This document shows positions 1,580 through 58,032 of a stretch of 64,000 bases of DNA, one piece after another. The DNA comes from Thermoplasmatota archaeon (GTDB lineage: Archaea; Thermoplasmatota; Thermoplasmata; UBA10834), in the NCBI GenBank assembly GCA_040751795.1, contig JBFMHR010000002.1:288001-352000 (forward strand), given 5' to 3'. Position numbers and translations under genes: made by a program. Each line of letters opens with the position of its first letter. The stretch's first letter is position 1. The notes beneath the pieces are model-generated. The model was not told the DNA's origin. It worked only from the letters and a program-made list of their open reading frames with translations, and made no database searches.

Positions 1580-1729
1580 ATGGCGAGATTCCCAGAGGCC
1601 GAGGCCCGGAACCTTATCAAGAAGATCTGCATGAACTGCAACGCCAGGAACGCCATCAGGGCTACCAGGTGCAGGAAGTGCGGCTACAAGGGGCTGAGGA
1701 TCAAGACGAGAGAGGCCAAGAAGGCCTGA
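1580..1729 (+). CDS. rpl40e: 50S ribosomal protein L40e
   Basis: [10 protein letters not shown]...CMNCNARN...CRKCG; ATG at 1580, TATA (TTATATA) at ~1540. Confidence 0.95.
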
Positions 1730-1812
1730 TCGCGCCTCGGATGCAGCCGTCCCGTGTTCTTTCGAGCGACGCCCCCAGCCGGTCTGGGCGCAGGGCCAGG
1801 CCTGTTCCAGTT

Positions 1813-1905
1813 GAGAAGAAAAAGGGTGGAGGGGACTCCACCGCAGTTGGGCATCACCCTTTGGTTACACCTCTCCTCTTCCTACAAAAGAGCGAACCAA
1901 TTGGC
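1813..1905 (-). ncRNA. Candidate small structured RNA (two hairpins plus U-tract)
   Basis: Minus-strand TTAAA box at 1935-1931; stems 1861-1866/1895-1900 and 1825-1831/1836-1842; followed by TTTTTCTT. Confidence 0.4.
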
Positions 1906-2046
1906 TGAGTGGTGTATGCACAAGGTGTTCTTTAACTCTTTTCATCGCCGTCGGAGAATATCTCAGAAATGTGTCAACCCATCCCCTTCGACCATGGCCG
2001 TTGTACGATTAGAATCTTTTTATTTGATTTTTGCCAATACAGTGTC

Positions 2047-3099
2047 ATGTGGCGTTTCCTCCCTTCCGAGATGACCGTCATACTAGCCTTGACCGAGGAT
2101 GCGGACAGGACCGATGCGCGGATCGCCGAGGAGTACGGCATGAACAAGGGCACGGTCGCCTCCGTGAGGCGCAGGCTGCTCGACTCCGGAGCCGTGTTCT
2201 TCGCGAGCGTCCCCTCCTTCAACAAGCTCGGCTGCGAGCTGATGGCGTTCCACACGGGGGCGACGGACCCGGCGGTGCCGGCCGACGTGAAGACCAACAA
2301 CTACCTCGAGTTCTGCGAGGGGAGCCCGAGCATCTTCAACGCGATGATAGGTGGCGGCTACGTCTCCTTCCTCAGCGTCTTCAAGGACGCCACGGACCTC
2401 GAGACGTTCCTCCAGGACCACGGCAGGTTCTTCTCCGGCCAGAGGCGGGCGTCCAGGGCGAGGCTGGAGACGGCGATGTTCCCCTACCGCCTCACGAGGG
2501 GGACGTACGCGACCAACTTCGCGCCGACCGTCCACGACTTCTTCAAGCTGGACGTGCCGCCGCCGAAGCCCCGCCCCACGACCTCGGAGAGCGTCACGAG
2601 CCCGGACCTCTCCAGGAACGAGGCGCGGACGCTCACGGAGCTCGTGGCGGACCCCACCTCCTCCGACAAGCAGCTCGCGTCGAAGGTCGGCCTGTCCAGG
2701 CAGGCGGTGACGCGCATCAGGCGGAAGCTCTTCGAGGAGAGGTACCTGACCCGCGTATGCATACCCAGGCTGTACAAGTGGGGCTTCGAGATCTCCGCCG
2801 TCACCCACTCGAGGTTCAACATGGAGCTCCGCTGGGACATAAGGGTGAAGGGCCAGCCGAAGGACGTCACCGCCCTCTCGTTCATGACCCTGTCCAAGGC
2901 GGACGAGGCCGTCACGAACCACATGGTCGCCACCTACCAGGAGTACTCCGAGAAGATGGAGGCCATGCTCGGGTGGTTCCACAAGATGAAGGCGTTCGAC
3001 GAGAACCCCAAGATCAACGTCTTCTCCCTCGAGAGGAGCACTGAGCTCAGGTCCTTCGACTTCCTCCCCGCGGTGAAGAACCTCCTGCGGGAGGCGTAG
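2047..3099 (+). CDS. Tandem Lrp/AsnC-like transcriptional regulator (two wHTH modules)
   Basis: Two HTH segments (DARIAEEYGMNKGTVASVRRRL; DKQLASKVGLSRQAVTRIRRKL), each followed by an Lrp-like linker (VPSFNKLGCE; IPRLYKWGFE). Confidence 0.8.
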   Translation: MWRFLPSEMTVILALTEDADRTDARIAEEYGMNKGTVASVRRRLLDSGAVFFASVPSFNKLGCELMAFHTGATDPAVPADVKTNNYLEFCEGSPSIFNAMIGGGYVSFLSVFKDATDLETFLQDHGRFFSGQRRASRARLETAMFPYRLTRGTYATNFAPTVHDFFKLDVPPPKPRPTTSESVTSPDLSRNEARTLTELVADPTSSDKQLASKVGLSRQAVTRIRRKLFEERYLTRVCIPRLYKWGFEISAVTHSRFNMELRWDIRVKGQPKDVTALSFMTLSKADEAVTNHMVATYQEYSEKMEAMLGWFHKMKAFDENPKINVFSLERSTELRSFDFLPAVKNLLREA

Positions 3100-3181
3100 G
3101 CCGCGGGGGAAGGGCTGAGAACGTGTAAATACGCCGCCCGGCAATACTCTGGACGGTGATGCCCTGAAGGTCACACCGCAG

Positions 3182-3556
3182 ATGGCGGCGAGGTGGGCGA
3201 AGGCAGTCTTCATGGCCCTGCTTGCGATGGTGCTCGTTCTCTACGGGAGCGGCTTCGTGTCCGACCTGGAGACCAACGCCGCGGCGGAGTGGAACATGTC
3301 CTTCGAGTGGACCTGGGACCTCCTCACCTACCTGATCTGGATAATCATCGCTTGGCTGCTCGTCGACGCCGTGATCATAGTCGTCCTGAGCTTCAAGATG
3401 GACGTGTACAGCCTCGGGGACGTGATGGACCGCCTCGCGAGGATCGAGAAGCGGCTCGGGCCGGAGAAGGCCAGGCCCGCGCAGGCGCCGCCGGAGGCCA
3501 TGGGCCCGGCGGTGACGGTCGACGAGGACAGGGAGCCGCCACCGCCGAAGGAGTGA
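3182..3556 (+). CDS. Hypothetical membrane protein (2 TM plus short coiled coil)
   Basis: Two hydrophobic segments; host-like codon usage; fills the gap before the convergent topA. Confidence 0.7.
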   Translation: MAARWAKAVFMALLAMVLVLYGSGFVSDLETNAAAEWNMSFEWTWDLLTYLIWIIIAWLLVDAVIIVVLSFKMDVYSLGDVMDRLARIEKRLGPEKARPAQAPPEAMGPAVTVDEDREPPPPKE

Positions 3557-3559
3557 GGC

Positions 3560-7435: not shown

Positions 7436-8302
7436 GTGGCAGAGCTCTGGTTGTTTCTTGCCTTGGGGACAATGCTGGCATACGGCATCGGTCAGGTTCT
7501 CCAGAAGGTGGGCACGACCGGATGTGGCCCCACTGCCATGATCCTGTTCACGGCCCTCATCTGCGGATCGATCTGGGGAGCTTGGTACATCCTGTTCAGG
7601 GACGAGATGGAGATGACGTTGTACTCCCTCGCCGTCCCGCTGATCGGCGGCGCCCTGGGCATGTCCGGCAACGTGTTCTTCTTCGAGGCCTTGGCGAGAG
7701 GGAACGTCAGCGTGGTTGGGACGCTCGTCGCCGCATACCCATGCGTTACCGTCGTCGCTGCGTTCCTGCTCCTTGATGAGAGGCTCAGCGCAGTCAGGTA
7801 CGCAGGGGTCCTCCTGATACTGCTCGGCATCGTGGTCCTGTCGACAGGCGGCACCGGTTCCAGGCAGTCGGTGTCGAAGACTGGCCTCATGCTCGCCGCG
7901 GCGAGCTTCCTGGCTTTCGGCTTGGCGGGGGTGACGCTCAAGGAGGCGGTCAGAGTCGTCGGGAGCGACAACGCGATGGGTTTCTACGCTCTGGTGTACG
8001 TGCTCGGAGGCACATCGTATTGGCTGGTCAAACGCGGAGGCCGCTCGGAGGGCCCGGTGGCCAGGATGCCGCGGAGGGCGATTGGCATCGGCGCCGTAGG
8101 CCTGTCGTTCAGCGCGGTGGGCGGCATCCTTCTCATCTGGGCGCTCGTGGACGGCCCGGCGTCTATCGTGATCACACTGTCCGGGGCGTACCCGATTGTG
8201 ACGATAGCAGCCGCGCTGGTGTTCCTGAAGGAGAAGGTGGTCGCGCGTCAGGGCATCGGACTCGCGATGGTGCTCGTTGGGCTGCCATTTGTATCGTTTT
8301 GA
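7436..8302 (+). CDS. EamA/DMT family transporter
   Basis: About 10 TM helices in two repeats, each ending in an (L)xE(R/K) motif. Confidence 0.88.
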   Translation: MAELWLFLALGTMLAYGIGQVLQKVGTTGCGPTAMILFTALICGSIWGAWYILFRDEMEMTLYSLAVPLIGGALGMSGNVFFFEALARGNVSVVGTLVAAYPCVTVVAAFLLLDERLSAVRYAGVLLILLGIVVLSTGGTGSRQSVSKTGLMLAAASFLAFGLAGVTLKEAVRVVGSDNAMGFYALVYVLGGTSYWLVKRGGRSEGPVARMPRRAIGIGAVGLSFSAVGGILLIWALVDGPASIVITLSGAYPIVTIAAALVFLKEKVVARQGIGLAMVLVGLPFVSF

Positions 8303-8314
8303 GCCAAGCGTCCG

Positions 8315-9421
8315 TCATGTCTTCCGGTACACGTCGAGGAGGTCGCCGAGGGGCGCGTCCGTCCTGAGGCCCTTGGGGTCGAAGTGCGTCCTCGAGGCCC
8401 TGAATCCGGCTTCCGACAGCTTCCCGACCATGTCCACGAGCTTGGGCGGCGAGTGCTTCGTGCGCTTGGCCAGCTCGTCCAGCTTGTAGAAGAGCGGCGG
8501 CGCCCCGACCTCCTCCTTCCAGAGGGCGAGGTACTTCTCGCACCTCGCGGAGGTCCCGAGGTCCTTCGTGGCCATCATCGCATCCAGCAGGTCCCCGGAG
8601 GACATCGCCCCGGTCCAGAGCGGCCCCGCGTCGGCCTTGTCCGCCCTCTCGGGGAGCAGGGCCCTCCCGAGGGTGGCCTTGTCGAAGTGGGCGTAGCCCA
8701 GCCTCTTGAGCGCCGCGTCGGCGCGGGCGGCGCCGTTCACGACCCTGAGGTAGCACCTGAAGTAGTGGTCCGTGTGGTAGCACAGGAGGGGCTCGCAGGC
8801 CCTGTCGTGCCTGGCCGCCTCCCTGGCCATGAACCCCATGAGTATCCTTATGCCGGTCTCGTGGGCGAAGGGCGACCTCTGGGACAGCGCCCCGTACCTC
8901 CTGAGCGAGGTCCTGGGGTAGGTGCCGTACAGGGGGGCGGTGTCGGTCGCGGTGATGGCGATCGTCCCCCCGTTCCTGCAGCTCTGGACCGCCGCATTGA
9001 CGAAGTCTATGGGCGTGCCGAAGGGGTCTATGTCGATGTAGTCGAACTGCTCCTCGGCGAGGACGGCCCTAAGGTCCCTGCACATGACCCTCACGTGGTC
9101 GAGGCTGTTGGCGGAGGCGTTCTCCTTCATGAGCACCGCGGCGGCGAGGTTCCTGTCGTTGAGGGCGAAGTCTGCGCGGACGCCCGTCTCGTTGGCCAGC
9201 CTCAGCCCCCGGGCGCCGGACGCGGCGAGCCCGTCCAGGACCTTGTCCCCGTCCCTGAACACGGCCCGCCCGAACATGACGGACACGTCCCTGCCGAACT
9301 CCATCTGCCTGTTGTAGAAGACGTCCCCGGTCCTGGTTCCGGGCCCCTTCTTGCAGAAAGCCTCCGGCACGAGGAGCTCGGTCGTGCCCTCGATGACCTT
9401 GACCAGGGATGAGGAGTTCAC
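8315..9421 (-). CDS. trm1: tRNA (guanine26-N2)-dimethyltransferase
   Basis: VFYNRQM, DGLAASGARGLR, DIDPFG, TATD, THF...G.RTDAP. Confidence 0.95.
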   Translation of the reverse strand: MNSSSLVKVIEGTTELLVPEAFCKKGPGTRTGDVFYNRQMEFGRDVSVMFGRAVFRDGDKVLDGLAASGARGLRLANETGVRADFALNDRNLAAAVLMKENASANSLDHVRVMCRDLRAVLAEEQFDYIDIDPFGTPIDFVNAAVQSCRNGGTIAITATDTAPLYGTYPRTSLRRYGALSQRSPFAHETGIRILMGFMAREAARHDRACEPLLCYHTDHYFRCYLRVVNGAARADAALKRLGYAHFDKATLGRALLPERADKADAGPLWTGAMSSGDLLDAMMATKDLGTSARCEKYLALWKEEVGAPPLFYKLDELAKRTKHSPPKLVDMVGKLSEAGFRASRTHFDPKGLRTDAPLGDLLDVYRKT

Positions 9422-9963
9422 ACGTACTCGCCCTTCATGAGTTTTATGATCTTGTAGGGCAGGAGGTTCCTGTTGATCGGCGTGACCTCCAGTATCCTGA
9501 CGTCGTCCCTGCGCCTGATGTCCTGGAGGAGCGGGTTCCTGGACTTCTTGTGGAGGGTGAGTATGATGGGCTTGTCGACCTCCATCGCGTCCTTGACCGC
9601 CTTCACGAACCTGTCTGACTCGACCTCCATCTTGCCGACCTCGTCTATCACGATGACGTCGGCGTTCTTGCTGGCGTCGACCAGCGCCTCCACTCCCACG
9701 GTGTCCAGGCTCTCGAGGTTCACGCCGTACTTGCCGACGCAGAACTTGGACTCGGTGTCCGTGTGCGCGAACACCGCCTTCCGCTTGGTCTTCCAGTCCA
9801 TGACGTAGAAGCCCATGCGCTTGCCCCCCTCGATTATGGGCTCCGTGACCATGCCCCCGACGACGAGCCCCTCCTCCTCGAGCATCTCGATGACCTTGAC
9901 GAGGGCCTGGGTCTTGCCCGCGCCGGGCAGGCCCGTGATCCCTATCTTGACTCCCCTCGTCAT
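9418..9963 (-). CDS. Nucleoside-triphosphatase (THEP1/NTPase_1 family)
   Basis: GITGLPGAGKT P-loop, VGKYGV, IDEVGKME; start taken at ATG 9963. Confidence 0.92.
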   Translation of the reverse strand: MTRGVKIGITGLPGAGKTQALVKVIEMLEEEGLVVGGMVTEPIIEGGKRMGFYVMDWKTKRKAVFAHTDTESKFCVGKYGVNLESLDTVGVEALVDASKNADVIVIDEVGKMEVESDRFVKAVKDAMEVDKPIILTLHKKSRNPLLQDIRRRDDVRILEVTPINRNLLPYKIIKLMKGEYV

Positions 9964-10069
9964 GCTATCACCGCGGTGGCGCCGGAACGGTTTTCTGTAT
10001 GCGTATTCATATATATAATGTGTGTCATAAATCTTCAACACTCGATGACTGGCCGACGGGCCTCTCCGC

Positions 10070-10462
10070 TCACTCCTCGCCCCGCACGACCCTCTTCACG
10101 AACATGAGCGGGTAGCTCATCTCCTTCACGAACCTCATGCCTGCCTCGAGCTCCGTCCCCTTGTAGCGGATCCTGAGGGACACGTCCAGCATGTCCCCCG
10201 TGAGGGACACGTAGTCATACTCCCCGGACTTCTTGCGGAGCCTGGACCGGTCGATGCGCACCTCGACGTCCTCGACGAAGGGCTGGACCATGCTCCCGGC
10301 CTCCATGGCCTCCTCGAGCTTCTCCACGTTCTCGGCGCTCACGGGGACCCCGACGAACTGGTGGTAGATCGTGCCGAGCTTGATGCCGGCCTCGAAGGCT
10401 GCCCTCTCGGAGTCCGAGCAGTCGAAGTACTTCTCGGACTCACGTTCTCTTGCGTCTCTCGT
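10070..10462 (-). CDS. mptD: Archaeal dihydroneopterin aldolase (start codon unresolved)
   Basis: Frame reads YFDCSDSERAAFEAGIKLGTIYHQFVGVPV...QPFV...YPLM. The conserved N-terminus lies upstream of the only canonical start (GTG 10342). Confidence 0.85.
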   Translation of the reverse strand, partial: TRDARERESEKYFDCSDSERAAFEAGIKLGTIYHQFVGVPVSAENVEKLEEAMEAGSMVQPFVEDVEVRIDRSRLRKKSGEYDYVSLTGDMLDVSLRIRYKGTELEAGMRFVKEMSYPLMFVKRVVRGEE

Positions 10463-11210
10463 ACAAGGGCCCCCCTACAAGGTACGCGGTGGTCAGAGCC
10501 AGCGCGATGCCTGTGGCGGTACGTGAGAACGCCGTATATAATTGTTGGTCGCCGACAAGGGCGATGCCAGCCACCGTCGGGAGGAGGGCCAGCGCGACGC
10601 CCACGACGCTCGCGACAGCCATGGGGCCGCGCATCTTCGGGTAAGGGACGGTGGAGGCCATGAGTATGCTCGCGACGAGGGCCGCCGGGAGCACGGCCGC
10701 AGGCGCCTCGCCGAACGAGAAGTAGTACTCGGAGGGCTCGGAGCCGGCGACGGGGCCGAAGAGCAGGCAGAGCAGTATCACGAACAGCGCCGCCCCTGGG
10801 GCGGGCAGGCCCGCGAAGTGGGGCAGCTGGAAGCCGCCCGCGCTGAACCTCGCCAGCCTGAAGAGGCCGGAGACGAGGAAGGCGACCGAGCACGCGAGCA
10901 CCAGGACGTCCTGGGGCGCCTGGAGGGGCGCCACCGCGGGGTCCTCGAAGACCGCGTACAGGAGGAACGCCGGCGCGAAGGCGAACGAAATGGAGTCGGA
11001 GATCGAGTCGAGGATCTGCCCCCGCGAGTGCTTGCTCCCGTACCTCCTCGCCATGAAGCCGTCCAGCCCGTCCATGACCATCGAGAGCAGGAGGAGGCTC
11101 GTGGCAGAGAGGTAGTTGCCCTCGGAGACGTAGACTATCGCGATGAAGCCGAGGGCGCCGTTGGCGAGGGTGAAGAGGTCCCCGAGGGAGACCCTATCCA
11201 GAGCGGTCAT
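10440..11210 (-). CDS. pssA: Archaetidylserine/phosphatidylserine synthase (CDP-alcohol phosphatidyltransferase)
   Basis: DGLDGFMARR...G..LDSISD motif, RLARF, FAGLP; adjacent to the decarboxylase. Confidence 0.88.
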   Translation of the reverse strand: MTALDRVSLGDLFTLANGALGFIAIVYVSEGNYLSATSLLLLSMVMDGLDGFMARRYGSKHSRGQILDSISDSISFAFAPAFLLYAVFEDPAVAPLQAPQDVLVLACSVAFLVSGLFRLARFSAGGFQLPHFAGLPAPGAALFVILLCLLFGPVAGSEPSEYYFSFGEAPAAVLPAALVASILMASTVPYPKMRGPMAVASVVGVALALLPTVAGIALVGDQQLYTAFSRTATGIALALTTAYLVGGPLYERRKRT

Positions 11211-11793
11211 CGGCGACCTCCGCGACGCACGTCACCCCGGCGCGGAGCCTCTGCCCCACCTGTGCCTTGATCCTGACCCTGCCCGGCGGGAGGAAGAGGT
11301 CCACCCTGGAACCGAACCTGATGAGGCCGAGGCGGTCCGCCTTCCCCAGCGGGAGGCCCTGGTCCACGTAGGGCACTATCCTCCGCGCGAGTATCCCGGA
11401 CATGTGCATGATCGTGATGTCCCCGATGCCGGTCTCCATGCCGACCTCGACGCGCTCGTTGTTCGGGGACCTGGCGCTGAACGCCGGCAGGTGCCTCCCC
11501 GGGTAGCGGACCATCTTGGAGACGACGCCCTCGATCGGGGCCCTCGTCACGTGGACGTTCCTGAGGGCGAGGTAGATGGAGACGAGCCCCTTCTCGTGGT
11601 CGACCTCCCTCACGACGCCGTCCGCAGGCGCGACGATGCCGCTGCCGGCGGACCTGGACGGGTCCCTGAAGACGAACGCGAGGAAGCCGGCGAGGCAGGC
11701 GAAGGCGACGCAGGCGTAGACGCTCACGAAGAACGTGGCGACGGAGGCTGCCGCGCTCAGCAGCACGAATACGCGTCCGCCCCTGGCGATCAT
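11194..11793 (-). CDS. psd: Archaetidylserine/phosphatidylserine decarboxylase
   Basis: FRDP, APADG, VHVTRAP, NER and the FGS autocleavage motif. Confidence 0.92.
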   Translation of the reverse strand: MIARGGRVFVLLSAAASVATFFVSVYACVAFACLAGFLAFVFRDPSRSAGSGIVAPADGVVREVDHEKGLVSIYLALRNVHVTRAPIEGVVSKMVRYPGRHLPAFSARSPNNERVEVGMETGIGDITIMHMSGILARRIVPYVDQGLPLGKADRLGLIRFGSRVDLFLPPGRVRIKAQVGQRLRAGVTCVAEVADDRSG

Positions 11794-11835
11794 TCAGGTT
11801 GCCTCTGCTCCCAGAGCGAAGTCAAGACCGAACCC

Positions 11836-12489
11836 CTATTTAAGGAGCATCTTGGCGTCGACCACGACGACGCCCCTGCTCTTTATGAAGACCGGGTTCA
11901 GGTCCATCTGGTCCAGCCTGTCCATGTGCTTCTCGCCGAAGGCCGAGACCGCGAGGAGGAGGTTCACTATCCCCTCCCTGTCGACCTTGATCTTCCTGAA
12001 GCCCTCCAGTATGGGCGCCGCCTTGATCTCCCTGAGCATCTCCTCGGCGTCCTCCCTCTTGATCGGGACGACCCTGAACGTGACGTCCTTGTAGACCTCG
12101 GTGTAGATGCCCCCGAGGCCGAACATGATGGTCAGGCCGAAGGTGCCGTCGTTGATGAGGCCGACTATGACCTCCACCTTCCTGTCCTGCATCGACTCGA
12201 CCAGGATGTCCTCCCCGGGGAACTTGTCCCTCATCTTGCAGAACTCCTGCTCGAACTGGTCCCTCGCGACGTCCAGGGCGACGCCCCCGACGTCCGTCTT
12301 GTGGAGTATCTTCGGCGAGCAGACCTTGAGCACGACCGGGAACTTCAGCTTCTTCTGGTCGATGTCCGCCATGGACCTGCCCACCTGGAAGTCGGTGGTG
12401 GGTATGCCCGCCTCGCGGAGCACCTCCTTGACCTCGTTCTCCGCGAGCGCCTTCCTGCCCTCCCTGAGCACGGAATCGATGACAGACAA
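11836..12489 (-). CDS. ADP-forming acetate/acyl-CoA ligase beta subunit (ATP-grasp)
   Basis: FPVVLKV...HKTDVGGV, FGLGGIYTEVYKD, DLNP; TTG start at 12489. Confidence 0.9.
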   Translation of the reverse strand: MSVIDSVLREGRKALAENEVKEVLREAGIPTTDFQVGRSMADIDQKKLKFPVVLKVCSPKILHKTDVGGVALDVARDQFEQEFCKMRDKFPGEDILVESMQDRKVEVIVGLINDGTFGLTIMFGLGGIYTEVYKDVTFRVVPIKREDAEEMLREIKAAPILEGFRKIKVDREGIVNLLLAVSAFGEKHMDRLDQMDLNPVFIKSRGVVVVDAKMLLK

Positions 12490-12521
12490 GTTGACCGCCT
12501 TCCTGATGCGCGAATCGCGCC

Positions 12522-13100
12522 TTAATCCTTGCCGTGGCTCTGTATCGCGGCCTGGCCAAGGCGCCTCCCGAGCGCCAGCGCGGCCCTGTTCAGGTCGTGC
12601 GTCGCCTTCGGGACGGACTCGAGCATCGCCCTCTCCAGCGCCTCGAACGAGACTATGTCCGAGATCTCCCTGAGCGCGCCGAGCATGACAACGTTGCCCA
12701 CGACCCTGGTGCCCATGCCCTCGGCCTCCTTCGTCGCCCTGACAAGGTACACGTGCCCCGAGGGCTTGGCCCTCACTAGGTCGGGGTCCAGGATGACCTT
12801 GGTCTCGGGCTTGACCTCGTGGATGTACTTCTCGTAGGCCTGCTGCGAAAGGACCACGAGGTAGTCCGGGATCTCGACGAACGGGTAGTGCATGTCCCCG
12901 GTGGAGATCTTGACGTCGCACTTGGAGTGCCCGCCCCTCGCCGAGGGGCCGTAGGACTGCGTCTGGATGGCCGACTTGCGGGTGACCTTCCCCTCCTTGG
13001 ACACGGGCCGGTCGTACAGGGCCGCGGCCCTGGCCAGGACCACCCCCATGAGGATGACCCCCTGGCCCCCGAAGCCCGTGAACCTAATGCCTGTCTCCAT
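12522..13100 (-). CDS. 2-oxoacid:ferredoxin oxidoreductase gamma subunit
   Basis: GFGGQG, QSYGPSARGG, NVVMLGA. Confidence 0.93.
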   Translation of the reverse strand: METGIRFTGFGGQGVILMGVVLARAAALYDRPVSKEGKVTRKSAIQTQSYGPSARGGHSKCDVKISTGDMHYPFVEIPDYLVVLSQQAYEKYIHEVKPETKVILDPDLVRAKPSGHVYLVRATKEAEGMGTRVVGNVVMLGALREISDIVSFEALERAMLESVPKATHDLNRAALALGRRLGQAAIQSHGKD

Positions 13101-13902
13101 GTCCCTCGACTCCTACCCTCTCCTGGTAGCACTCCCGGTCCCTGTTGACGAACTCGCCGATGGTGATCTGCCCGGCGAGGTTGAGGTCGACGTGGTCGAC
13201 GTCCGCCGCCCTGGACTTCTCCCTACGGACGGTGCTCGCCTTGAACCAGTCGAGCATCGCGGACGGGTCGGCCATCTTGTTCCTGCGGCCGAAGTTCGTC
13301 GGGCACTGCGAGACGACCTCTATGAAGTTGAAGCCCTTCTTCTCCAGGGCGACCTTGATGGACTTGGTGAGCTCGTGCACCTGCCTGGTGGTCCACCGGG
13401 CGACGTAGTTGGCGCCCGCCGCGACGGCGATCTCGGCGAGGTCGAACGGGTACTCCCTGTTGCCCGCCGGCGTCGTGGTCGAGAGGAAGTCGTGCGGCGT
13501 GGTGATGGACGCCTGCCCGCCCGTCATCCCGTAGATGTTGTTGTTTATGCAGATGACGTCCATGTCGACGTTCCGCCTGCACCCGTTGATGAAGTGGTTG
13601 CCCCCGATGGCCCCGAGGTCCCCGTCGCCCGTGAAGACGACTATGTCCAGCTCCGGCCTCGCCAGCTTGAGCCCGCTCGCGAAGGCGATGGCCCTCCCGT
13701 GGGTGGTGTGGAGCGCGTCGGCGTTGATGTAGAGGGGTATCCTGGACGAGCAGCCGATACCGCTCACGAAGACGGTGTTGTCGAGGTCCCAGCCGAGGTC
13801 GTTGAAGGCCCTGAAGAAGCAGTTCATGACCGTGCCGTTCCCGCAGCCGGGGCAGAAGACGTGCGGCCATCGGTCCTTCCTGTAGAAATCGAAGAGCTCC
13901 AT
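13084..13902 (-). CDS. 2-oxoacid:ferredoxin oxidoreductase beta subunit (TPP-binding)
   Basis: FCPGCG, SGIGCS, HTTHGR, GDGD...NN.YGMTGGQ; ATG at 13902. Confidence 0.95.
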   Translation of the reverse strand: MELFDFYRKDRWPHVFCPGCGNGTVMNCFFRAFNDLGWDLDNTVFVSGIGCSSRIPLYINADALHTTHGRAIAFASGLKLARPELDIVVFTGDGDLGAIGGNHFINGCRRNVDMDVICINNNIYGMTGGQASITTPHDFLSTTTPAGNREYPFDLAEIAVAAGANYVARWTTRQVHELTKSIKVALEKKGFNFIEVVSQCPTNFGRRNKMADPSAMLDWFKASTVRREKSRAADVDHVDLNLAGQITIGEFVNRDRECYQERVGVEGHGDRH

Positions 13903-45891: not shown

Positions 45892-46132
45892 AGCTGGGCG
45901 GAACCGCACTGCCCAGAGGCTTCCGTGGTGAAGAGAGCCGGATTCGGGCGGATCAGACTGACTGGCTCGCGGTCAAGGATTTCCGCCCAAGGAGAGTTCA
46001 TTGCCGAGGATACGAGAGATGGTCACCCCTCTTCCTTTCTCCGCTGGTGCGACTTCTTCGATGAATCGACTCCATGAATCTTCTTCAGGTCTAGTCATCC
46101 TCCTCCCCAATAGTCCCATCCTGTCTTTTGGG

Positions 46133-46594
46133 CTACGCCTTGCGTGGGAAGAACTTCCTGAACGGTAAGAGCAGGCCCACGAGACTCAAGATGCTAAACA
46201 ACACCAATGGTGGGAGCAATGAAGAGCGCGATTCGCTTGAATCAAGGGTCAGGCTGAGCGCTGCGAAACCTAAATAGAACGCTGGAACAAACCAGAAAGC
46301 ATACCACGCCCACCTTTCCGCCCGTCTATACGCAGTCGCGGAGATCACTGTGAGAAGGAAGGCGAAGCCAAGGTCAGACAGGCCTCCACTTCTAAAGTAG
46401 AAATCATACAGGGCGAAAAACATCGGATCCGACTCTTTCAGATCGTCTATTGATATGCCGGCAATACTCTCTACCAAAGCAGGGTCTGTGTTGTAACCCA
46501 ATGCATGGGGCACCGCAGATACTAGGATGATTGCCCCTAGAGCGGAGAAGATTATCCATGCATACTTCTCATAGATTTTCTCTTTGATTTCCAT
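46133..46594 (-). CDS. Hypothetical membrane protein (lower GC)
   Basis: About 4 TM; AGGAGG RBS upstream; A/T-ending codons unlike the host genes. Confidence 0.75.
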   Translation of the reverse strand: MEIKEKIYEKYAWIIFSALGAIILVSAVPHALGYNTDPALVESIAGISIDDLKESDPMFFALYDFYFRSGGLSDLGFAFLLTVISATAYRRAERWAWYAFWFVPAFYLGFAALSLTLDSSESRSSLLPPLVLFSILSLVGLLLPFRKFFPRKA

Positions 46595-46827
46595 CTTCCA
46601 ACCTCCTTGTCATAAGTGATTTCGAGCTGAACTCAGGGAAGAAAAAACTCGAGGATTCGAACCCTCTTCAAATCGTCGGTTCCGCTTTGCTCTGAAGATG
46701 GAATCGCCTTATCCTTCATATGGTCTTCTCATGTGGAAGAGCGTCCTTTTGCTGTTGAGACTTAACGTTTATTCGATGGAACGACCTTGATTCAGTCACG
46801 GCGAAGAAGAGCGAGCGCCCCAAGTAA

Positions 46828-46840
46828 GGGGGGGGGGGGG
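46828..46840. repeat. G13 homopolymer
   Basis: 13 consecutive G directly upstream of the flavodoxin core. Confidence 0.9.
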
Positions 46841-46846
46841 AGAAGG

Positions 46847-47326
46847 ACGGCAACCAAGTCTCTACTGATCGTGCGTTCATATCATCACGGGAGTACTGAA
46901 AAGGTCGCCAAGGTTCTTGCCAGAGTCCTTGATGCACAGATACAGACGCCCGCGCAGATACGCCCTGAGGAGCTTCAAGAGTACACTATCATCGGCTTTG
47001 GCTCAGGGATCTATGATGCCAGACACCATCTAGATCTGCTTGACCTCGCAGACAGGCTCCCCCCAGTCGACAACAAGAAGGCGTTCATCTTCTCAACGAG
47101 TTCCATGGTCAATGAAGACAAAGTCGCGGAAGACCACTCTGCGCTGAGGGAGAAACTGCGATTGAAAGGGTACAAGATCGTTGATGAGTTCAGCTGCCGA
47201 GGTTTCAACACGAACAGCTTCCTGAGGCACTTTGGGGGTATGAACAAGGGGAGACCCAATGCTGAAGATCTCAAGCATGCGGAAGAGTTTGCTGTGAATC
47301 TGAAGCAGAGCATGGGCGCCACGTAG
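46847..47326 (+). CDS. Flavodoxin family protein (start uncertain: ACG 46847 or TTG 46787)
   Basis: SYHHGSTEKVA, GFGSGIY, FIFSTS, FSCRG...GGMNKGRP. Confidence 0.85.
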   Translation, partial: TATKSLLIVRSYHHGSTEKVAKVLARVLDAQIQTPAQIRPEELQEYTIIGFGSGIYDARHHLDLLDLADRLPPVDNKKAFIFSTSSMVNEDKVAEDHSALREKLRLKGYKIVDEFSCRGFNTNSFLRHFGGMNKGRPNAEDLKHAEEFAVNLKQSMGAT

Positions 47327-47426
47327 CTAGTCTCGAACATGAGAGATGCGATGCTGCGGAAGAGAGGCTATCGACTTTGAACTCTGAACACTGGCAACAT
47401 CGCCATTCCGCGGCCTTCGATTCCCC

Positions 47427-53348: not shown

Positions 53349-54731
53349 TCAGCCCTTGGCGCCCATCCGCTCGATGATGGCCGCGACGAGCGCCACGGAC
53401 CCGAGCATGCTCTCCACCTTCATGTTCTCGTTCGGCGCGTGGGTGAAGGTCTCCTCGTTGTCGGCGTAGCAGTAGGCCATGCACAGGGGCGCGTGCTCGG
53501 CGAACATCGCCGCAGGCCCCGAGAACTGGGCCATCGGGACCACGCCCGTCCCGGCCGGGGCGCACACCTCCTTCATTATCGAGTGGACCAGCCTGATGTA
53601 GGGGTGGTTCACCGGAGTCTTGGCGGGCTCCAGGCCGGGCTTCTTGATGACGTCTATGTCAGTGAAGCCCCGCGCGTCCAGGTGCCTCCTCAGCAACGTG
53701 TGGACCTTGTCGACCGTGAGGTCGGGCACCATCCTCACGTCCAGCTTCGCGCTCGCCTTGGCCGGCACCACGGTCATGTCCTCGACCCCCTGGTAGCCCG
53801 TGGTCACGCCGCATATGGACATCTGCGGCCTCAGGAAGAGCTCCTTGAGCAGCTCCACGTCCCTCCTTCCCATGAGGGGCCTCTCCAGGCCGTACTCCTG
53901 CATGATCTGCGTGGTGAGGTCCCCCTGGTACTCCCTCAGCGCCTGGACGTCCTCATCCAGCGGCTCCTTCACCAGCTCGTCGAACCCGTCCACCGTGATG
54001 CTCTCGTCCGGGGCCTTCAGCGTGCTCAATGCCCAGACCAGCCGCCATGCGGCGTTCGGCACGGCCGCGGCCTCGCCCGAGTGCGCGTCGGTCCTGGCGA
54101 AGTGAGGGGCGCCCTTGGTGACGAGCTCGAAGTATGCGTCGCCCTTCAGCCCGCAGACGACCTCGCCCGGGCTCGCAGGCGTCGCGCTAACGCCCTCCCA
54201 CACGCTGCCGTCGGCAGTGATGAAGTCCTTGTGTTCTTTGGTGAAAGCGGGGAGCGACATGGAGCCCGCCTCTTCCTCCCCCTCGACCACGAAGCGGACG
54301 TTGACCGGCAGCTCGCCCAGGATGTCCTCGATGAGGTCCACCCCGGCCATGCTGGCCGCGAGCGGACCCTTGTCGTCGCTGACCCCCCGTCCGTAGATCT
54401 TTCCCTCGCGCGTCGCGAGCTCCCATGGGGACGAGCGCCACAGGCCCAGGTCCCCCGCGGGCTGCACGTCGTAGTGGTGGTAGAAGAGCAGCGTCTTCTC
54501 CGCGCCCTTGTCCTTGGAAGCGTAGACGATCGGCGCGCCTCCCTTCACAAACAGCGCCGACCTGTAGCCCCTCCTTCTGAACTCCCTGTCGACGAGTCCA
54601 GCGCACTCCTTCAGGGGCTCCTCTTCCCTCGGAGCTATCGTCTTGAATTGTACCATTTCGGCGAGAAAGTCCATCGCGCCCTTCTCATGATCCTTGGATC
54701 TGCCCTTCAGCGCCGCGAAAGTCTGCACCAT
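53349..54731 (-). CDS. M20/M25/M40 family metallo-(di)peptidase
   Basis: HYDVQP, GRGVSDDKG, EGEEE, HSG, HAPNE. Confidence 0.92.
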   Translation of the reverse strand: MVQTFAALKGRSKDHEKGAMDFLAEMVQFKTIAPREEEPLKECAGLVDREFRRRGYRSALFVKGGAPIVYASKDKGAEKTLLFYHHYDVQPAGDLGLWRSSPWELATREGKIYGRGVSDDKGPLAASMAGVDLIEDILGELPVNVRFVVEGEEEAGSMSLPAFTKEHKDFITADGSVWEGVSATPASPGEVVCGLKGDAYFELVTKGAPHFARTDAHSGEAAAVPNAAWRLVWALSTLKAPDESITVDGFDELVKEPLDEDVQALREYQGDLTTQIMQEYGLERPLMGRRDVELLKELFLRPQMSICGVTTGYQGVEDMTVVPAKASAKLDVRMVPDLTVDKVHTLLRRHLDARGFTDIDVIKKPGLEPAKTPVNHPYIRLVHSIMKEVCAPAGTGVVPMAQFSGPAAMFAEHAPLCMAYCYADNEETFTHAPNENMKVESMLGSVALVAAIIERMGAKG

Positions 54732-54799
54732 GCACGCACTCCCGTGGGATCTCCGATGCCCGGAATCCGGAATGTAGCAGCACTATTTAGATGGGTCGA

Positions 54800-55847
54800 A
54801 CCCGGAATCACTGCGGTTTCGTCCTCGAAAAGTCGTCCTGCACTCGCCTGCAATTCGCCACGCTGGCCAGGCATGGATGCACCACGTCGGATGCATCGAT
54901 TGCCGGGATTTCTTGAGCATGGCTTCCAATCCCGAACGCGGCCCCGATAGCTGCTGGACCTGGGGAAATACCGGTGAGTTATCTGCTCCGAATGTGAGCA
55001 CGGATTACCATGCACCGTCCCCTAACGAGAACCATCTCATCGCACCCTTCAATTTGCACCTAAGCGGCCTCTCGGACCTGCGAATATATGTGATAGGTAT
55101 ACAGGATAAGATGTCAATGATACTATCTATTAGAAGAATAGCATAATGGTTAATCGTACTCTCCGCCCAAACCCACGGCGTGATGCCCACCCATTGGCTC
55201 CAGCTCACTTGGATAGTATCTGCCTGGACTCATGGCTGGGTGATCTGGCTATCCGTTCCAGCGTCTCTGGATGGCTCGAGTTCAGGTTCACTCCATGGCG
55301 CGGGGCTCCCAATGCAGGCCTCGAATCCGCCTCTCTCCCTCGACGCAAAACGTGAGGCGTGCTATCTCGGAGCACGCTGGTTATATCGTACGTGCTATGC
55401 TAGCACATATCATGCTGTCCGCCGTCGTCGGACGGAAATATATGTGTGACCTATACAATGGCCGTTGATATAGATACATAGAGAAATAGTATAATTGTAT
55501 GGTCGAATCAACCCCTTCTATTGCCCCCGTAGGGGGCAAAGGGGGCGGAATGCCCCTCGGATCCCGATTTTTCGCTGCTTCCTAAGGGGGTTTTGACCGA
55601 TTTATTCGTATCCTTGATACAGAGTAGCACGATTTGAGCACGAATCCACTGCTGGATGGAGGGTGTCCCGGACGCCCACCATCGGAAACGGCAACAAATA
55701 GGGGATAAGGCGACGTTTTGACTAGGGGTCCGGGAGGGGGGTGAGCGGTCCAGGGCGTTTTGGACCCAAAATGCGACATTTTTATATAGGCACAATTCGA
55801 TGCTTTGTCGGACAATCGTCCAACAGGTAAGGGATGGGAAACCTACC
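54800..55847. other. About 1.1-kb gene-free, lower-GC, repeat- and hairpin-rich region upstream of the tyrosine recombinase
   Basis: No credible ORF; direct repeats, recurring AGCAC(G) motifs and many stems (see findings). Confidence 0.75.
55779..55788 (+). promoter_or_regulatory. TATA box of the recombinase gene
   Basis: TTTTTATATA about 60 nt upstream of ATG 55848, flanked by two imperfect palindromes. Confidence 0.7.
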
Positions 55848-56501
55848 ATGAGAAAGTATCTCAAGGAGGACGAGCTAAAGGCGTTGCTCGAGGCTCCTCG
55901 ACGGATGCGCGACCGTCTGATCATCAAACTCATGTACGAAACGGGGATGCGGGTAGGCGAGCTAGCAGCCTTGACAATCGGTGACGTGGACCTCGAGTCG
56001 GGCGAGATCACGATCCAGAGGGCGAAGAGGCACGAGGAGGGGCGCAAGGTCCCCATAGTCGACAGCTGGACCAAGACGATGCTCCACGACTACATCGGCA
56101 CCAGGAAGATACGGAAGGACCCGCTCTTCGTCTCCAACAAGCGCGGCCCGCTGTCCAGGCGGCAGGTTGAGCGCCTGGTCTCCAACTACGCGGAGAAGGC
56201 CGGGATCGAGCCAGACAAGCGCCATCCGCACGTCCTGAGGCACACTCACGCGGTCCACGCCCTGAAGTCTGGCATAGACCTGAGGACGCTCCAGCAGAAC
56301 CTGGGCCACTCCAGCATCGAGGTCACGGCCATATACCTCACGATGGACATCGACGACAGGAAGGAGGCGTACTCGAAGCACCCGCTGCCTGGCATGTCCG
56401 AGCACGCGGAGCCAGATGACGCCGAGGAGGGCCACGCGGGCGAGGCGCTCACTGTGCACTCCAATCACTCGAGCTCGTTCGTGCTCTCAGGTGATGTTTA
56501 G
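55848..56501 (+). CDS. Tyrosine recombinase (catalytic domain only)
   Basis: TGMRVGEL (R), AKR (K), HVLRH (HxxR), LGHS (H), TAIY (Y); 217 aa with no N-terminal core-binding domain. Confidence 0.93.
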   Translation: MRKYLKEDELKALLEAPRRMRDRLIIKLMYETGMRVGELAALTIGDVDLESGEITIQRAKRHEEGRKVPIVDSWTKTMLHDYIGTRKIRKDPLFVSNKRGPLSRRQVERLVSNYAEKAGIEPDKRHPHVLRHTHAVHALKSGIDLRTLQQNLGHSSIEVTAIYLTMDIDDRKEAYSKHPLPGMSEHAEPDDAEEGHAGEALTVHSNHSSSFVLSGDV

Positions 56502-56649
56502 TCAGCACCTAAACAAATCTATTGCAAACATCTTACACCTATCATATTCTCCTGTATGGCTAGAATGGGCGGAGACCGCCCCCTCCGAGCCGCATTTTCG
56601 GGCGCCCCGGGATTAGTTCATATCCCGCGATGCCCTATCGCGCGACGCG

Positions 56650-58032
56650 ATGCAGGAAGAGTGGACCGAGAAGTACAGGCCCAAGTCCCTCTCCCAGATC
56701 ATGGGGAACAACTACGCGGTGCGCTCCATGCGGAACTGGGCGGAGTCGTGGTCTAAGGGGAAGCCGCGCTACAAGGCCATGGTGCTCAGGGGCGAGCCAG
56801 GCACCGGGAAGACCAGCTCGGCGCTCGCCCTCGCCAACGACTTCGGGTGGGACGTCGTCGAGATGAACGCCTCCGACCACAGGAACGCCGATTCGATCAA
56901 GCGCGTCGCCGGGCTCGGGGCCATATCCCAGACGCTCACTCTGGACGGCGAGTTCCGCTCCACCGCGCAGGGGAAGAGGAAGCTCATAATCCTCGACGAG
57001 GCCGACAACCTGTTCGGGAGGGAGGACTACGGCGGCGCGAAGGCGATCGTCGAGGTCATCAGGGAGTCGAGCCAGCCAGTCATACTGATAGTCAACGACT
57101 ACTACGAGCTGACGAGGAAGGCGTCCGCGCTCAAGACCCTCTCGGACAAGGCGGTGTTCAGGAGGCTGGACGACCGGACGGTCGTCGCGGTGCTGGCGCG
57201 CATCGCCAAGGCGGAAGGCGTCACGCTGGGCCAGCCCTCGCTCGAGAAGATCGCGGAGAACGCTGGCGGCGACCTCAGGGCGGCCGTCAACGACCTCCAG
57301 ATGCTGGTGGAGGGCAGGACGGAGGTGCGGGCGGAGCACACGTCCGTGCTCTCGGAGAGGAACCAGGAGGCGCAGCTGGGCGACTCGCTCAGGGCCATGT
57401 TCGGCGCCAAGACGGCCAAGGAGGCCCAGGACGCCACGATGGACCTGGACAAGCTCCCGGAGGAGCTGGAGAAGTGGGTGGAGGAGAGCATCCCGAGCGA
57501 GATGAAGGACCCGCGGGACCTCGCGGCCGCCTTCGAGGCCATATCCCGGGCGGACATCTACCTCAGGAGGAGCAGGAAGCTCCAGCACTACGGCATGTGG
57601 GCCTACGCGCGCACGATGATGACGGGCGGCGTCGCCCTGTCCAGGAGGTACGGCGCGAGGCCGCACGTCGGCGAGTACGGGTTCCCCAGCCACTTCATGG
57701 TCATGTCCCGCGCCAAGGGCGCCAACGCGGCGAGGGAGTCGCTCAGGGCCAAGCTCAGCCCCCAGTTCCACACCTCGGGCAAGGAGTTCAGCGAGGCGGT
57801 CCTGCCGGCCCTCGTGACGCTGGCCAGGCGGGAGAGGGGGATACTCCTCAAGCTCGCGGTCGACGCGGAGCTGGACGACGGGGACGTCGCGTACCTCCTC
57901 GGCAGCGAGCCGGGCTCGGCCGAGGTCGAGGCGGTGATGGCGAAGGCCCGCGCCTCCAAGGGCGAGGATGACCCGGGCAGGGCCGCGAAGGCCAGGCCGC
58001 GCTCGAGGGGCAGGAGCCTCGGGGACTTCTGA
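56650..58032 (+). CDS. rfcL: Replication factor C large subunit
   Basis: WTEKYRP, GEPGTGKT, EMNASD, DEAD, GDLRAAVNDLQ, C-terminal PIP-like SLGDF. Confidence 0.95.
   Translation: MQEEWTEKYRPKSLSQIMGNNYAVRSMRNWAESWSKGKPRYKAMVLRGEPGTGKTSSALALANDFGWDVVEMNASDHRNADSIKRVAGLGAISQTLTLDGEFRSTAQGKRKLIILDEADNLFGREDYGGAKAIVEVIRESSQPVILIVNDYYELTRKASALKTLSDKAVFRRLDDRTVVAVLARIAKAEGVTLGQPSLEKIAENAGGDLRAAVNDLQMLVEGRTEVRAEHTSVLSERNQEAQLGDSLRAMFGAKTAKEAQDATMDLDKLPEELEKWVEESIPSEMKDPRDLAAAFEAISRADIYLRRSRKLQHYGMWAYARTMMTGGVALSRRYGARPHVGEYGFPSHFMVMSRAKGANAARESLRAKLSPQFHTSGKEFSEAVLPALVTLARRERGILLKLAVDAELDDGDVAYLLGSEPGSAEVEAVMAKARASKGEDDPGRAAKARPRSRGRSLGDF

Follow-up and report, generated by a model that had tools for sequence, protein, structure and literature searches.

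dif sites consist of 11-bp inverted repeats around a 6-bp spacer and lie in non-coding DNA, and to our knowledge every Xer-type resolvase studied holds its DNA clamped between two domains. The bacterial XerS and XerH are FtsK-linked, two-domain proteins of about 356 amino acids. FimB and FimE, of about 200 amino acids, consist essentially of a catalytic domain only and use host accessory proteins on adjacent non-coding DNA. TnpI/IRS of Tn4430 and cer/psi combine a core site with adjacent accessory DNA that lies beside, or is used by, the recombinase, and their proteins have core-binding domains. Modules of xerA and dif, with dif upstream of xerA, have been reported in other archaea (excerpts of PMC5357621 and PMC11840125), and the first of these excerpts also describes the bacterial XerS/difSL and XerH/difH pairs, in which one recombinase gene and its own site form a genetically linked module. 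MpsA of the SGI1 system needs both an sRNA encoded at the cis site and a separate CB-like protein, MpsB (excerpt of PMC9299015). No description of a clamp-less XerA-like recombinase with an adjacent site was found in the literature searched.

The window analysed here, 64,000 nucleotides from a Thermoplasmatota archaeon, contains such a gene upstream of rfcL, together with a block of conserved non-coding DNA. The locus is tentatively read as a self-contained Xer/dif-like module whose recombinase has no core-binding domain, an interpretation about as likely to fail as to hold, under which the locus is most likely a compact device that disentangles replicated chromosomes.

A short recombinase gene beside rfcL

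A first-pass annotation of this DNA had proposed a 217-amino-acid recombinase with a complete R-K-HxxR-H-Y set, beginning directly at the catalytic domain and ending in an acidic, probably disordered tail, and each of these elements was recovered (Table 1). PF00589 is the only Pfam match of the protein (142.8 bits, E 1.2e-41), and its six catalytic residues are invariant in 22/22 aligned relatives, a set of short and full-length sequences with identity down to about 37%. This invariance argues for retained chemistry. The AF2 model (pLDDT 84.9) has as its top Foldseek match the XerA of T. acidophilum (5hxy), with a TMq of 0.74 and an rmsd of 2.3 A; 77 PDB chains match at E<=0.001, and all among the matches listed are tyrosine recombinases. 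The Pfam match, the fold and the active-site set together place the protein in the tyrosine recombinase superfamily.

The chains of XerA in the PDB align with the protein through their C-terminal domains only: residue 3 of the query pairs with residue 103 of 4a8e, and the protein begins at the equivalent of XerA residue ~101-103. The MRKY start codon is kept in 27 of 29 related loci, the exceptions being a locus cut by a contig end and two distant loci that align only from residue 20. At the other end, residues 181-217 have a pLDDT of 54-59 and no predicted secondary structure, as a probably disordered tail would, and they close in a motif conserved in the family, NH[ST]-x-[SY][FY]V[LI]S-x-DV. 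The NCBIfam model XerA_Arch (NF040815) gives 187.5 bits, below its equivalog cut-off of 220, and matches over model positions 94-263 only, with about 93 N-terminal model positions missing; the N-terminal four-helix core-binding domain of XerA is absent from the protein. The gene is thus best explained as encoding a probably catalytically competent tyrosine recombinase of a Thermoplasmata lineage that branches beside archaeal XerA and is without the core-binding domain.

Searches for the missing domain covered the locus and the genome. There is no Phage_int_SAM match at the locus, PF02899 and PF13495 matching only other, full-length recombinases. Among 18,896 stop-to-stop ORFs, no stand-alone core-binding-like ORF beyond the full-length genes scored below E 0.5 with a weak profile built from five XerA N-termini, in a genome that is 92.8% complete.

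The short form is widely kept. A recombinase match is present in 35 of 41 related genomes and in 22 of 24 in the family of the window (f1), where all but two of the 22 matching genomes have one copy; genome G024 carries two copies on two contigs. The best 120 relatives listed are 207-274 amino acids long and 77-91% identical, and identity between genera of the family is 74-91%. In an unrooted reading of the tree, 13 short forms from 9 families share one side of a branch (support 95/83; 94% of bootstrap trees). None of the 20 full-length sequences falls among them, not even the ones from G028 and G038, and the short form does not group with XerA orthologues. The first-pass annotation had allowed that homologs might carry the core-binding domain; close relatives are all short, and the short forms make up one old clade. 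Its suggestion of a domesticated recombinase agrees with the vertical inheritance, single copy and intact catalytic set seen here. At present, such genes are generically called 'tyrosine-type recombinase/integrase' or 'XerD', which masks a conserved core gene.

A lower-GC gap does adjoin the gene, and its codon usage, described earlier as mostly host-like, is so with a small deviation (GC3 of 0.85, slightly under the 0.91-0.98 of its neighbours), as might be seen in a decayed, 5'-truncated integrase of a lost mobile element. That origin was rejected, and is extremely improbable, given the conserved start codon and protein length, the high identity across genera, the single clade over 9 families and the kept synteny. 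There is also no frame-shifted N-terminal domain: the stop-to-stop frame spans 259 amino acids, and ORFs in the gap have no Pfam match. The sole tRNA of the window lies at 36175, in keeping with the earlier remark that none is nearby.

The short form is the best XerA-model match in 11 of 12 searched genomes of families f1 and f2, and full-length matches (160-170 bits) among these 12 occur only in G000, G006 and G018; those of G000 sit in or beside low-GC islands. On the best explanation of these matches, the short form would be the only Xer-like enzyme found in the order. In four genomes of other families (G028, G038, G072 and G109), it coexists with full-length XerA (240 bits or more), suggesting that the ancestral role need not be dimer resolution.

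The placement immediately upstream of rfcL, noted in the first pass, was confirmed, as rfcL begins 148 bp downstream of the recombinase; the diverging gene orientation was as well, the upstream M20 peptidase gene being divergent. The recombinase adjoins rfcL in 17 of 20 loci, the gene order recombinase-rfcL-Tyw1-CPSF is kept in 16 of 20, and the distant genomes G038 and G069 have the same recombinase-rfcL linkage. The linkage holds across the class and is old.

The upstream block and its dif-like repeat

The gap upstream of the gene (54732-55847) had been called the largest gene-free stretch of the window, and it is the largest without a plausible gene; a GC3 proxy gives a larger one (45892-47426), which contains two low-GC3 ORFs. 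Of the 1.1-kb locus proposed earlier, the whole length is not conserved, but the right ~490 bp (~55357-55847) are, while the left ~620 bp cannot be aligned even between genera of the family. Gap length is conserved across family and order at ~0.8-1.5 kb. Each of the 32 aligned genomes has the conserved elements (Table 1) in one and the same arrangement, with order and orientation unchanged. A hidden gene was sought by tblastx and blastn among the gaps, which picked up DNA similarity among near relatives and the 5' end of the M20 gene but nothing else, and none of seven ORFs in the gap matches Pfam at E up to 0.1. Skips in the alignments of relatives' contigs correspond to diverged spacers of equal length, not to junctions.

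Table 1. Features of the recombinase locus, in coordinates of the window.
Feature	Position	Strand	Remarks
Left part of gap, gene-free, variable and lower in GC	54732..55356	.	Sequence not conserved; total gap length conserved in family
Two palindromes, GCGTGCT..AGCACGC and GTGCTA..TAGCAC	55357..55406	.	Left edge of conserved block
GTCCG-N7-CGGAC element, then TATA-like AAATATATG	55417..55444	+	Possible, predicted second promoter
AT-rich spacer	55445..55518	.	Length conserved, sequence not (alignment of relatives)
Perfect palindrome TTGCCCCC-GTA-GGGGGCAA	55521..55539	.	Arms conserved, loop variable; unique in genome
Conserved palindrome TTGATAC-N3-GTAGCAC	55614..55630	.	Outer TG..CA invariant
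dif-like imperfect inverted repeat ACGGCAACAAAT-AGGGG-ATAAGGCGACG	55688..55715	+	28 bp; candidate core recombination site
BRE/TATA-type promoter element of recombinase gene, AAAATGCGACATTTTTATATAG	55768..55789	+	Conserved; putative promoter, from sequence only
GTCGGAC-N4-GTCC element near expected transcription start	55806..55821	+	Conserved; candidate operator
Invariant AAGGGATGGGAA just 5' of start codon	55829..55840	+	Putative ribosome-binding region
Short XerA-like tyrosine recombinase gene	55848..56501	+	217 aa; catalytic domain only; R35 K60 H128 R131 H154 Y163
Codons of acidic low-confidence C-terminal tail (residues 181-217)	56388..56498	+	Ends in family-conserved motif
rfcL (replication factor C large subunit)	56650..58032	+	Conserved downstream neighbour (Pfam, synteny)

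The first-pass annotation had placed a substrate of the recombinase in the adjacent non-coding DNA, and a candidate is there: the 28-bp repeat, ~130-160 bp upstream of the start, which can be read as two 11-bp arms around an asymmetric spacer of 5 bp or as 10+7+10. It is unique in G000, and it occurs once, at the same place and in the same orientation, in 16 of 20 loci. Across the order, 37 of 49 genomes have it, once each and in one orientation (reversed-pattern control 0/49), and second copies that would flank an integrated element are absent from the 49 genomes, except in G024 with its two recombinase copies. Comparison of the arms, including covariation, shows that they change independently without compensatory change, as expected of protein-binding DNA. 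A PWM built from 64 arms finds no conserved further half-sites in the 500-nt region. Distant short-form lineages (f5, f10 and f13) have a different palindrome with the same architecture upstream of the gene. Against the Xer/dif reading, none of the three loci (3/3) of lineage f16 has an upstream palindrome within 330 nt, and conservation continues leftward for ~330 bp beyond the site, which means that synteny does not break at the site itself.

A palindrome upstream of any gene could be a mere operator. The palindromes may serve regulation only: the recombinase/rfcL promoter region would have them as its operators, to which either the protein itself or some other transcription factor binds, and the protein's job would lie elsewhere, for example in blocking or unloading SMC complexes while bound to a site, or in an RFC-tied, replication-coupled role. 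Of the features that precede short-form genes, the GTCNGAC element near the expected transcription start (pairs related to 55806-55821) is the one conserved most widely in the class, and the palindromes of f5 and f13 lie directly against a TATA-like box. The presence of the short form beside full-length XerA in four genomes and the old rfcL linkage fit this account, as do dif-associated domain boundaries and the citation of XerD as an SMC unloader in the excerpt of PMC11840125. However, the same excerpt has the T. kodakarensis boundary independent of XerA or dif, the f1 palindrome precedes the TATA box by ~65-100 bp, a long distance for a simple repressor site, and the catalytic residues are invariant over 22 sequences to ~37% identity. 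Regulation alone is possible but rather unlikely.

The first pass had also called the locus structured and had suggested an RNA or ssDNA cofactor in place of the missing domain; neither proposal found support. The covariation score is 0.101 against 0.102 for shuffled alignments, the observed value being equalled or exceeded in 270 of 500 shuffles (32 sequences), and the palindromes do no better than shuffles. Rfam was searched with the gathering threshold across the window and, with a looser limit of E up to 5, across 54600-56750; a tRNA elsewhere and two chance-level matches were all that came up. RNAalifold predicts local hairpins only (covariation term -0.53 kcal/mol), and the left-block hairpins fold as single sequences with a mean z of only -1.0. 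The upstream block therefore matches no known RNA family and shows no covariation. Downstream of the TATA-like box at 55436-55444 come a variable stretch, a GC hairpin and T-runs, which could suggest a transcript, and there is a precedent in the sRNA needed by the clamp-less relaxase MpsA of SGI1 (excerpt of PMC9299015). Against the Rfam, covariation and folding results, it is very unlikely that the block encodes a structured RNA, whether an sRNA or a guide or cofactor of this kind.

A comparison with FimB/FimE-type invertases had been drawn as well, and a clamp-less protein of ~200 amino acids beside non-coding DNA with putative promoters, with weak matches to invertase models, resembles an enzyme that flips an adjacent promoter-bearing segment in phase variation. 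The matches are far below cut-off (NF007371, 71.2 bits against 222; NF007370, 66.6 bits against 221), compared with 187.5 bits for XerA. Moreover, the inverted matches that flank the gene in the window (I1 and I10) are AT-rich, mutually out of register and not conserved. One order and one orientation is found in 32/32 aligned genomes and in 37/37 site-bearing genomes, and no inversion joints occur in relatives' contigs over the conserved right half. An invertase of this type is highly improbable.

Chromosomal position and proposed role

Archaeal oriC regions have repeated ORB elements round an AT-rich unwinding element and usually lie beside orc1/cdc6. The gene-free region next to rfcL could itself be a replication origin or another replichore boundary element with which the recombinase is associated: its length is kept at ~0.8-1.5 kb over family and order, it includes a fixed-length AT-rich spacer between palindromes, genes diverge at the locus, and sampled GC skew turns from negative to positive there in G020 and G017. 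In the closed genome G018, k-mer strand-asymmetry boundaries fall at ~1.47-1.50 Mb and ~0.52-0.55 Mb, while orc1 maps to 1.484 Mb and the recombinase to 0.451 Mb, near one of the two; the partition score of 688 exceeds all 60 permutations (maximum 651). Since the other boundary coincides with orc1, the boundary near the recombinase is terminus-like, against an origin. Furthermore, both orc1/cdc6 genes are on another contig (C23), where ORB-like TCCAC..GGAA repeats are seen by eye upstream of one of them, and at the locus no repeated ORB-type element is seen, the arm PWM finding no further copies. The skew signal is weak and is absent in G000, where GC skew on the contigs shows no sign change at the locus and a change point near it reaches z 2.6 against a family-wise threshold of 4.9, both in a permutation-normalised scan. 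An origin at this locus is improbable.

Of the three closed genomes, one, G018, gives a suggestive link between locus and terminus. Even there the best boundary is 70-100 kb off the gene, which counts against the Xer/dif reading, as does the position of the gene in G017, merely 16% of the chromosome from the best-scoring orc1. Also against it, the compositional partitions of G020 (334, permuted mean 321) and G017 (480, permuted mean 369) fall short of significance, and the change point near the locus in G000 stays under its threshold.

Under the Xer/dif reading, two protomers would bind both 11-bp arms via the catalytic domain, two sites would synapse on a chromosome dimer, and Y163 would cleave, with strand exchange across the short asymmetric spacer resolving the dimer. 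Binding of the protein to the site, recombination and the role in dimer resolution are what we infer, while domain content, catalytic residues, conservation and monophyly of the protein, and the uniqueness, position and orientation of the site, are observed directly. Conserved palindromes nearby, along with the AT-rich spacer of fixed length, may act as accessory architecture and operators, which would regulate the gene and might make up for the missing clamp. In a more doubtful scenario, the whole order would have replaced canonical XerA with an ancient clamp-less paralogue that recombines or holds a single chromosomal site, relying on the ~490 bp of conserved flanking palindromes and the AT-rich spacer as DNA architecture instead of a protein clamp, and the original role may have been replication termination or chromosome organisation, not dimer resolution. 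The paralogue coexists with XerA elsewhere and stays linked to the clamp-loader gene rfcL, so its original role may differ from dimer resolution.

If a widespread, uncultured order of archaea does depend on the short form as its sole chromosome resolvase, a clamp would not be needed where DNA context gives the architecture. It would also provide a very small site-specific recombinase (a core of ~180 residues) with a defined 28-bp site for mechanism and engineering, and its coexistence with XerA in some families raises the question of a second function linked to the replication machinery.

Comparison with known systems

The archaeal XerA/dif systems (P. abyssi 4a8e, T. acidophilum 5hxy; NF040815) are closest in sequence and fold, and the catalytic residues are alike. 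In both cases there is a single recombinase and a unique inverted repeat in non-coding DNA, here a candidate site whose arms can be read as 11 bp long. Its place upstream of the gene is also that of the site in the haloarchaeal xerA operons described in the excerpt of PMC11840125. Unlike archaeal XerA, the short form lacks the N-terminal core-binding domain, has an extra acidic tail and falls in a clade separate from the full-length XerA of the same class, with which it coexists in four genomes. The site spacer is 5 or 7 bp, in contrast to the 6 bp of archaeal dif, and ~490 bp of flanking DNA is conserved. In sequence, the site does not resemble the dif of T. kodakarensis given in the excerpt of PMC11840125, with ~6/28 positions in common when set in register by eye; this and the spacer length count against the Xer/dif reading.

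The link between a single recombinase gene and its own, here candidate, site recalls XerS/difSL and XerH/difH. The short recombinase differs from XerS in its 217 amino acids and in its score with the XerS model (87 bits against a cut-off of 267). FimB and FimE share the size of ~200 amino acids and the catalytic-domain-only organisation, and differ in the weak model scores and in the absence here of flanking inverted repeats and orientation polymorphism. The clamp-less relaxases MpsA of SGI1, TcpM and MobK, as far as the excerpts describe them, likewise have no core-binding domain and a cis site upstream in inverted-repeat-rich DNA. These relaxases belong to mobile elements and nick oriT for conjugation, whereas the short form is a chromosomal core gene with conserved synteny, and the locus is not a mobilisable element of their type; unlike for MpsA, neither a CB-like partner nor an RNA signal was found here. 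No extra half-sites matching the arm PWM were found here; TnpI/IRS and cer/psi may serve as a model for how the flanking palindromes could impose architecture.

The recombinase and its relatives

The recombinase contains a single Pfam domain, the Phage_integrase catalytic domain PF00589 (E 1.2e-41). Its nearest solved structures are the archaeal XerA enzymes of P. abyssi (4a8e) and T. acidophilum (5hxy), which align to it through their C-terminal domains only, query residue 3 corresponding to residue 103 of 4a8e. Against the NCBIfam XerA equivalog, it reaches 187.5 bits, aligning to positions 94-263 of a model of 263 positions and falling under the cut-off of 220 bits solely because the first 93 positions of the model are absent; the FimB/FimE invertase models give 67-71 bits. 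The AlphaFold prediction, for which 22 rows were aligned, has a mean pLDDT of 84.9; it is confident for residues 1-178, and residues 181-217 (pLDDT 54-59) are without secondary structure. Structurally, it comes closest to T. acidophilum XerA (TMq 0.74, rmsd 2.3 A, 185 columns). Residues R35, K60, H128, R131, H154 and Y163 are unchanged throughout the 22 relatives aligned, short and full-length alike. A 233-aa version is possible in this genome (G000) from an upstream ATG, and the MRKY start is the one kept in related loci. The otherwise variable acidic tail closes with a family-conserved motif, which suggests a short docking motif for a partner, and which is missing from more distant short forms, the clamp-less recombinases consisting of the catalytic domain only.

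The first-pass annotation had allowed that this copy might be truncated. A word-indexed search at the protein level drew 582 candidates, 269 of which are relatives at E<=1e-5; the best 120 of the 269 are 207-274 aa in length, share 77-91% identity and carry PF00589 only, save two that also carry PF22823. When the representatives of 50%-identity clusters were searched exhaustively, the nearest ones, at 79-51% identity, likewise began at query residue 1, and canonical Xer-like proteins of 280-320 aa are first seen at about 37-45% identity. Judged by sequence comparison, the recombinase belongs to the conserved core genes, and truncation is set aside. Of 41 related genomes, 35 contain a match at E<=1e-20, including 22 of 24 in the same family (f1), with one copy per genome except in two of them, and 3 of 3 in the sister family (f2).

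Across the class, 91 genomes that are 85% or more complete were scanned with the XerA model, and 76 contain a match at E<=1e-25. With short forms defined by a match that starts no earlier than about position 59 of the model and a frame of about 190-280 aa, they occur in 11 families and full-length XerA in others; the tally for family f11 counts one unpublished genome (G124), on which nothing else depends. A maximum-likelihood tree of the catalytic domain (37 rows) combined 22 of a set of 30 loci, the earlier short-form loci, four G000 integrases and one Methanobinarius XerA, omitting L246, L253, L255, L256, L258 and L260 (redundant), L261 (unpublished) and L267 (internal stops). In this unrooted tree, all 13 short forms share one side of a branch (support 95/83, 94% of bootstrap trees), which sets them apart from full-length genes occurring in the same genomes.

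The genome G000 encodes seven additional PF00589 genes, and those PF00589 genes with a detectable core-binding domain are all full-length. On the large contigs, the additional genes lie inside or adjoining low-GC islands, and the additional genes look like mobile-element integrases. In 11 of the 12 f1 and f2 genomes scanned, no match to the XerA model outscores the short form, and full-length matches of 160-170 bits are restricted to G000, G006 and G018; G004, G017 and G025 contain the short form, one weak match each and nothing more. No further Xer was found in this order, and a search with an XerA N-terminal-domain profile found no stand-alone core-binding partner.

The low-GC islands of G000 (C1:35.5-47.4 kb, C1:392-426 kb and C34:142-151 kb; GC down to 0.44-0.50 vs 0.647 for the genome) surround or adjoin full-length recombinase genes (C1:41134-41976, C1:390787-391317 and C34:140635-141162) and are probably integrated mobile elements. 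Three of the seven additional genes stand in tandem on the 4.6-kb contig C7 (911-1435, 1812-2378 and 2836-3363), resembling a recombinase-in-trio element.

Upstream palindromes and the 28-mer

Only about 55357-55847 of the gene-free gap upstream of the recombinase is conserved. In the left ~620 bp, similarity from one genus to another could not be detected; this part lacks a conserved ORF, gave no Pfam match, and is left uncovered by the contigs of relatives.

Features of the recombinase locus and other observations, in window positions
Feature	Position	Strand	Detail
Lower-GC3 ORF pair	45892-47426		flanked by convergent high-GC3 genes
ORF of the pair	46133-46594	-	153-aa membrane protein (named by eye)
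ORF of the pair	46787-47326	+	179-aa flavodoxin-like (named by eye)
Two palindromes	55357-55406
GTCCG-N7-CGGAC element and TATA-like box	55417-55444
AT-rich spacer	55445-55518		length conserved, sequence free
Perfect palindrome	55521-55539		TTGCCCCC-GTA-GGGGGCAA
Further palindrome	55614-55630
28-bp imperfect inverted repeat (candidate recombination site)	55688-55715		ACGGCAACAAAT-AGGGG-ATAAGGCGACG
BRE/TATA-type element	55768-55789
GTCGGAC-N4-GTCC element	55806-55821		near expected transcription start
Invariant AAGGGATGGGAA	ahead of recombinase ATG
Recombinase ORF	55848-56501	+	217 aa
Tail-end motif	56467-56498		NH[ST]-x-[SY][FY]V[LI]S-x-DV, residues ~207-217
GC hairpin, then T-run	56567-56600		GGGCGG-AGA-CCGCCC, between recombinase stop codon and rfcL

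The region had been described as a structured locus, possibly an RNA or ssDNA fold. In an alignment of 32 sequences (the window and 31 of 35 family-level loci, with L072, L073, L083 and L087 omitted for short flanks), 80.5% of cells in six proposed helices are paired vs 80.9% in shuffles, and the covariation score is 0.101 vs 0.102, a value equalled or exceeded by 270 of 500 shuffles. The RNAalifold covariation term for the upstream block is -0.53 kcal/mol, and an Rfam search gave no match for the region. With covariation at shuffle level and no Rfam match, that description is not upheld, and the palindromes give no evidence of such a fold; they are palindromes conserved as DNA, and would most simply be sites bound by protein.

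The 28-mer is a candidate recombination site. It occurs once in G000, and one copy, at unchanged distance and orientation, is present in 16 of 20 loci. When 49 genomes of the order were searched with a degenerate pattern allowing at most 2 mismatches, 37 proved to contain it; each has a single copy apart from G024, where the recombinase also has two copies. The reversed-pattern control gave zero matches. Its two arms vary independently of each other. Distant short-form lineages, of families f5, f10 and f13, have a different upstream palindrome of similar build, GTCGCAAAAT-N4/5-ATTATGCGAC, and in three f16 loci none was found within 330 nt.

Gene order and chromosomal position

The gene order recombinase-rfcL-Tyw1-CPSF is conserved. 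The recombinase adjoins rfcL in 17 of 20 loci, and in f13, rfcL is still downstream with one gene between. The upstream neighbour differs among loci (an M20 peptidase gene, as in the window, in 7 of 20), and despite this change f1 and f2 retain a gap without genes, about 0.8-1.5 kb long. The hairpin ahead of rfcL may be a terminator, the two genes then being separate transcription units.

Further observations concern individual loci. L040 (G016:C18) carries the recombinase-rfcL-Tyw1-CPSF module twice, head to head (897-5823 vs 8093-13137); the two copies are not identical, with upstream blocks about 95% identical, a 1-nt deletion in the left dif-like site, and left recombinase and rfcL alignable in fragments only (50-62% identity). 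At L268 (G102:C5, f16), the short recombinase gene is preceded, at a distance of about 200 nt, by a divergent tRNA-Lys(CTT) gene (2158-2232), and no dif-like palindrome was seen in this upstream region. The lower-GC3 ORFs of the window may be acquired genes.

Both orc1/cdc6 genes of G000 are on contig C23, where an intergenic stretch upstream of one (132687-133093) contains the motif TCCAC..GGAA(A/T)C several times, together with G-runs; judged by eye, these motifs are similar to origin recognition boxes, which makes the stretch a candidate oriC. In three single-contig relatives, the recombinase lies 16% (G017), 47.7% (G018) and 11% (G020) of the chromosome from the best-scoring orc1, and 39.5%, 44.5% and 44.5%, respectively, from the second. 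Archaeal dif sites are frequently 122-144 degrees from oriC, according to PMC5357621.

For G018, a 4-mer strand-asymmetry scan (40 windows of 20 kb, 40% of the genome) gave a best two-arc partition with boundaries at about 0.52-0.55 Mb and 1.47-1.50 Mb, scoring 688, above all 60 permutations (maximum 651); the recombinase is at 0.451 Mb and an orc1 at 1.484 Mb. Partitions were not significant in G020, where the best long arcs begin directly after the recombinase gene, or in G017, where a-priori partitions through the gene score under the median. In G000, the change point closest to the locus has z = 2.6 vs a threshold of 4.9. A terminus link is thus suggestive in one of three closed genomes. 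Elsewhere in G000, a replichore boundary may lie at about 190 kb on C34, where the large contigs have their strongest change point (z 5.8; family-wise 95th percentile, 4.3).

Readings of the locus

The most economical explanation, held tentatively, is a Xer/dif-type module with a clamp-less recombinase. The main rival, which takes the palindromes for operators only and gives the protein a different role, perhaps one linked to replication, is rather improbable; it stays alive because short form and XerA coexist in four genomes (G028, G038, G072 and G109) and the recombinase-rfcL linkage is old. Readings as an origin, an invertase, an RNA or a decayed integrase are less likely than either. No description of this clamp-less recombinase lineage was found in the literature searched. 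Among known systems, certain archaea are reported to possess a xerA/dif module (PMC5357621), and dif-like elements are reported upstream of xerA operons in haloarchaea (PMC11840125).
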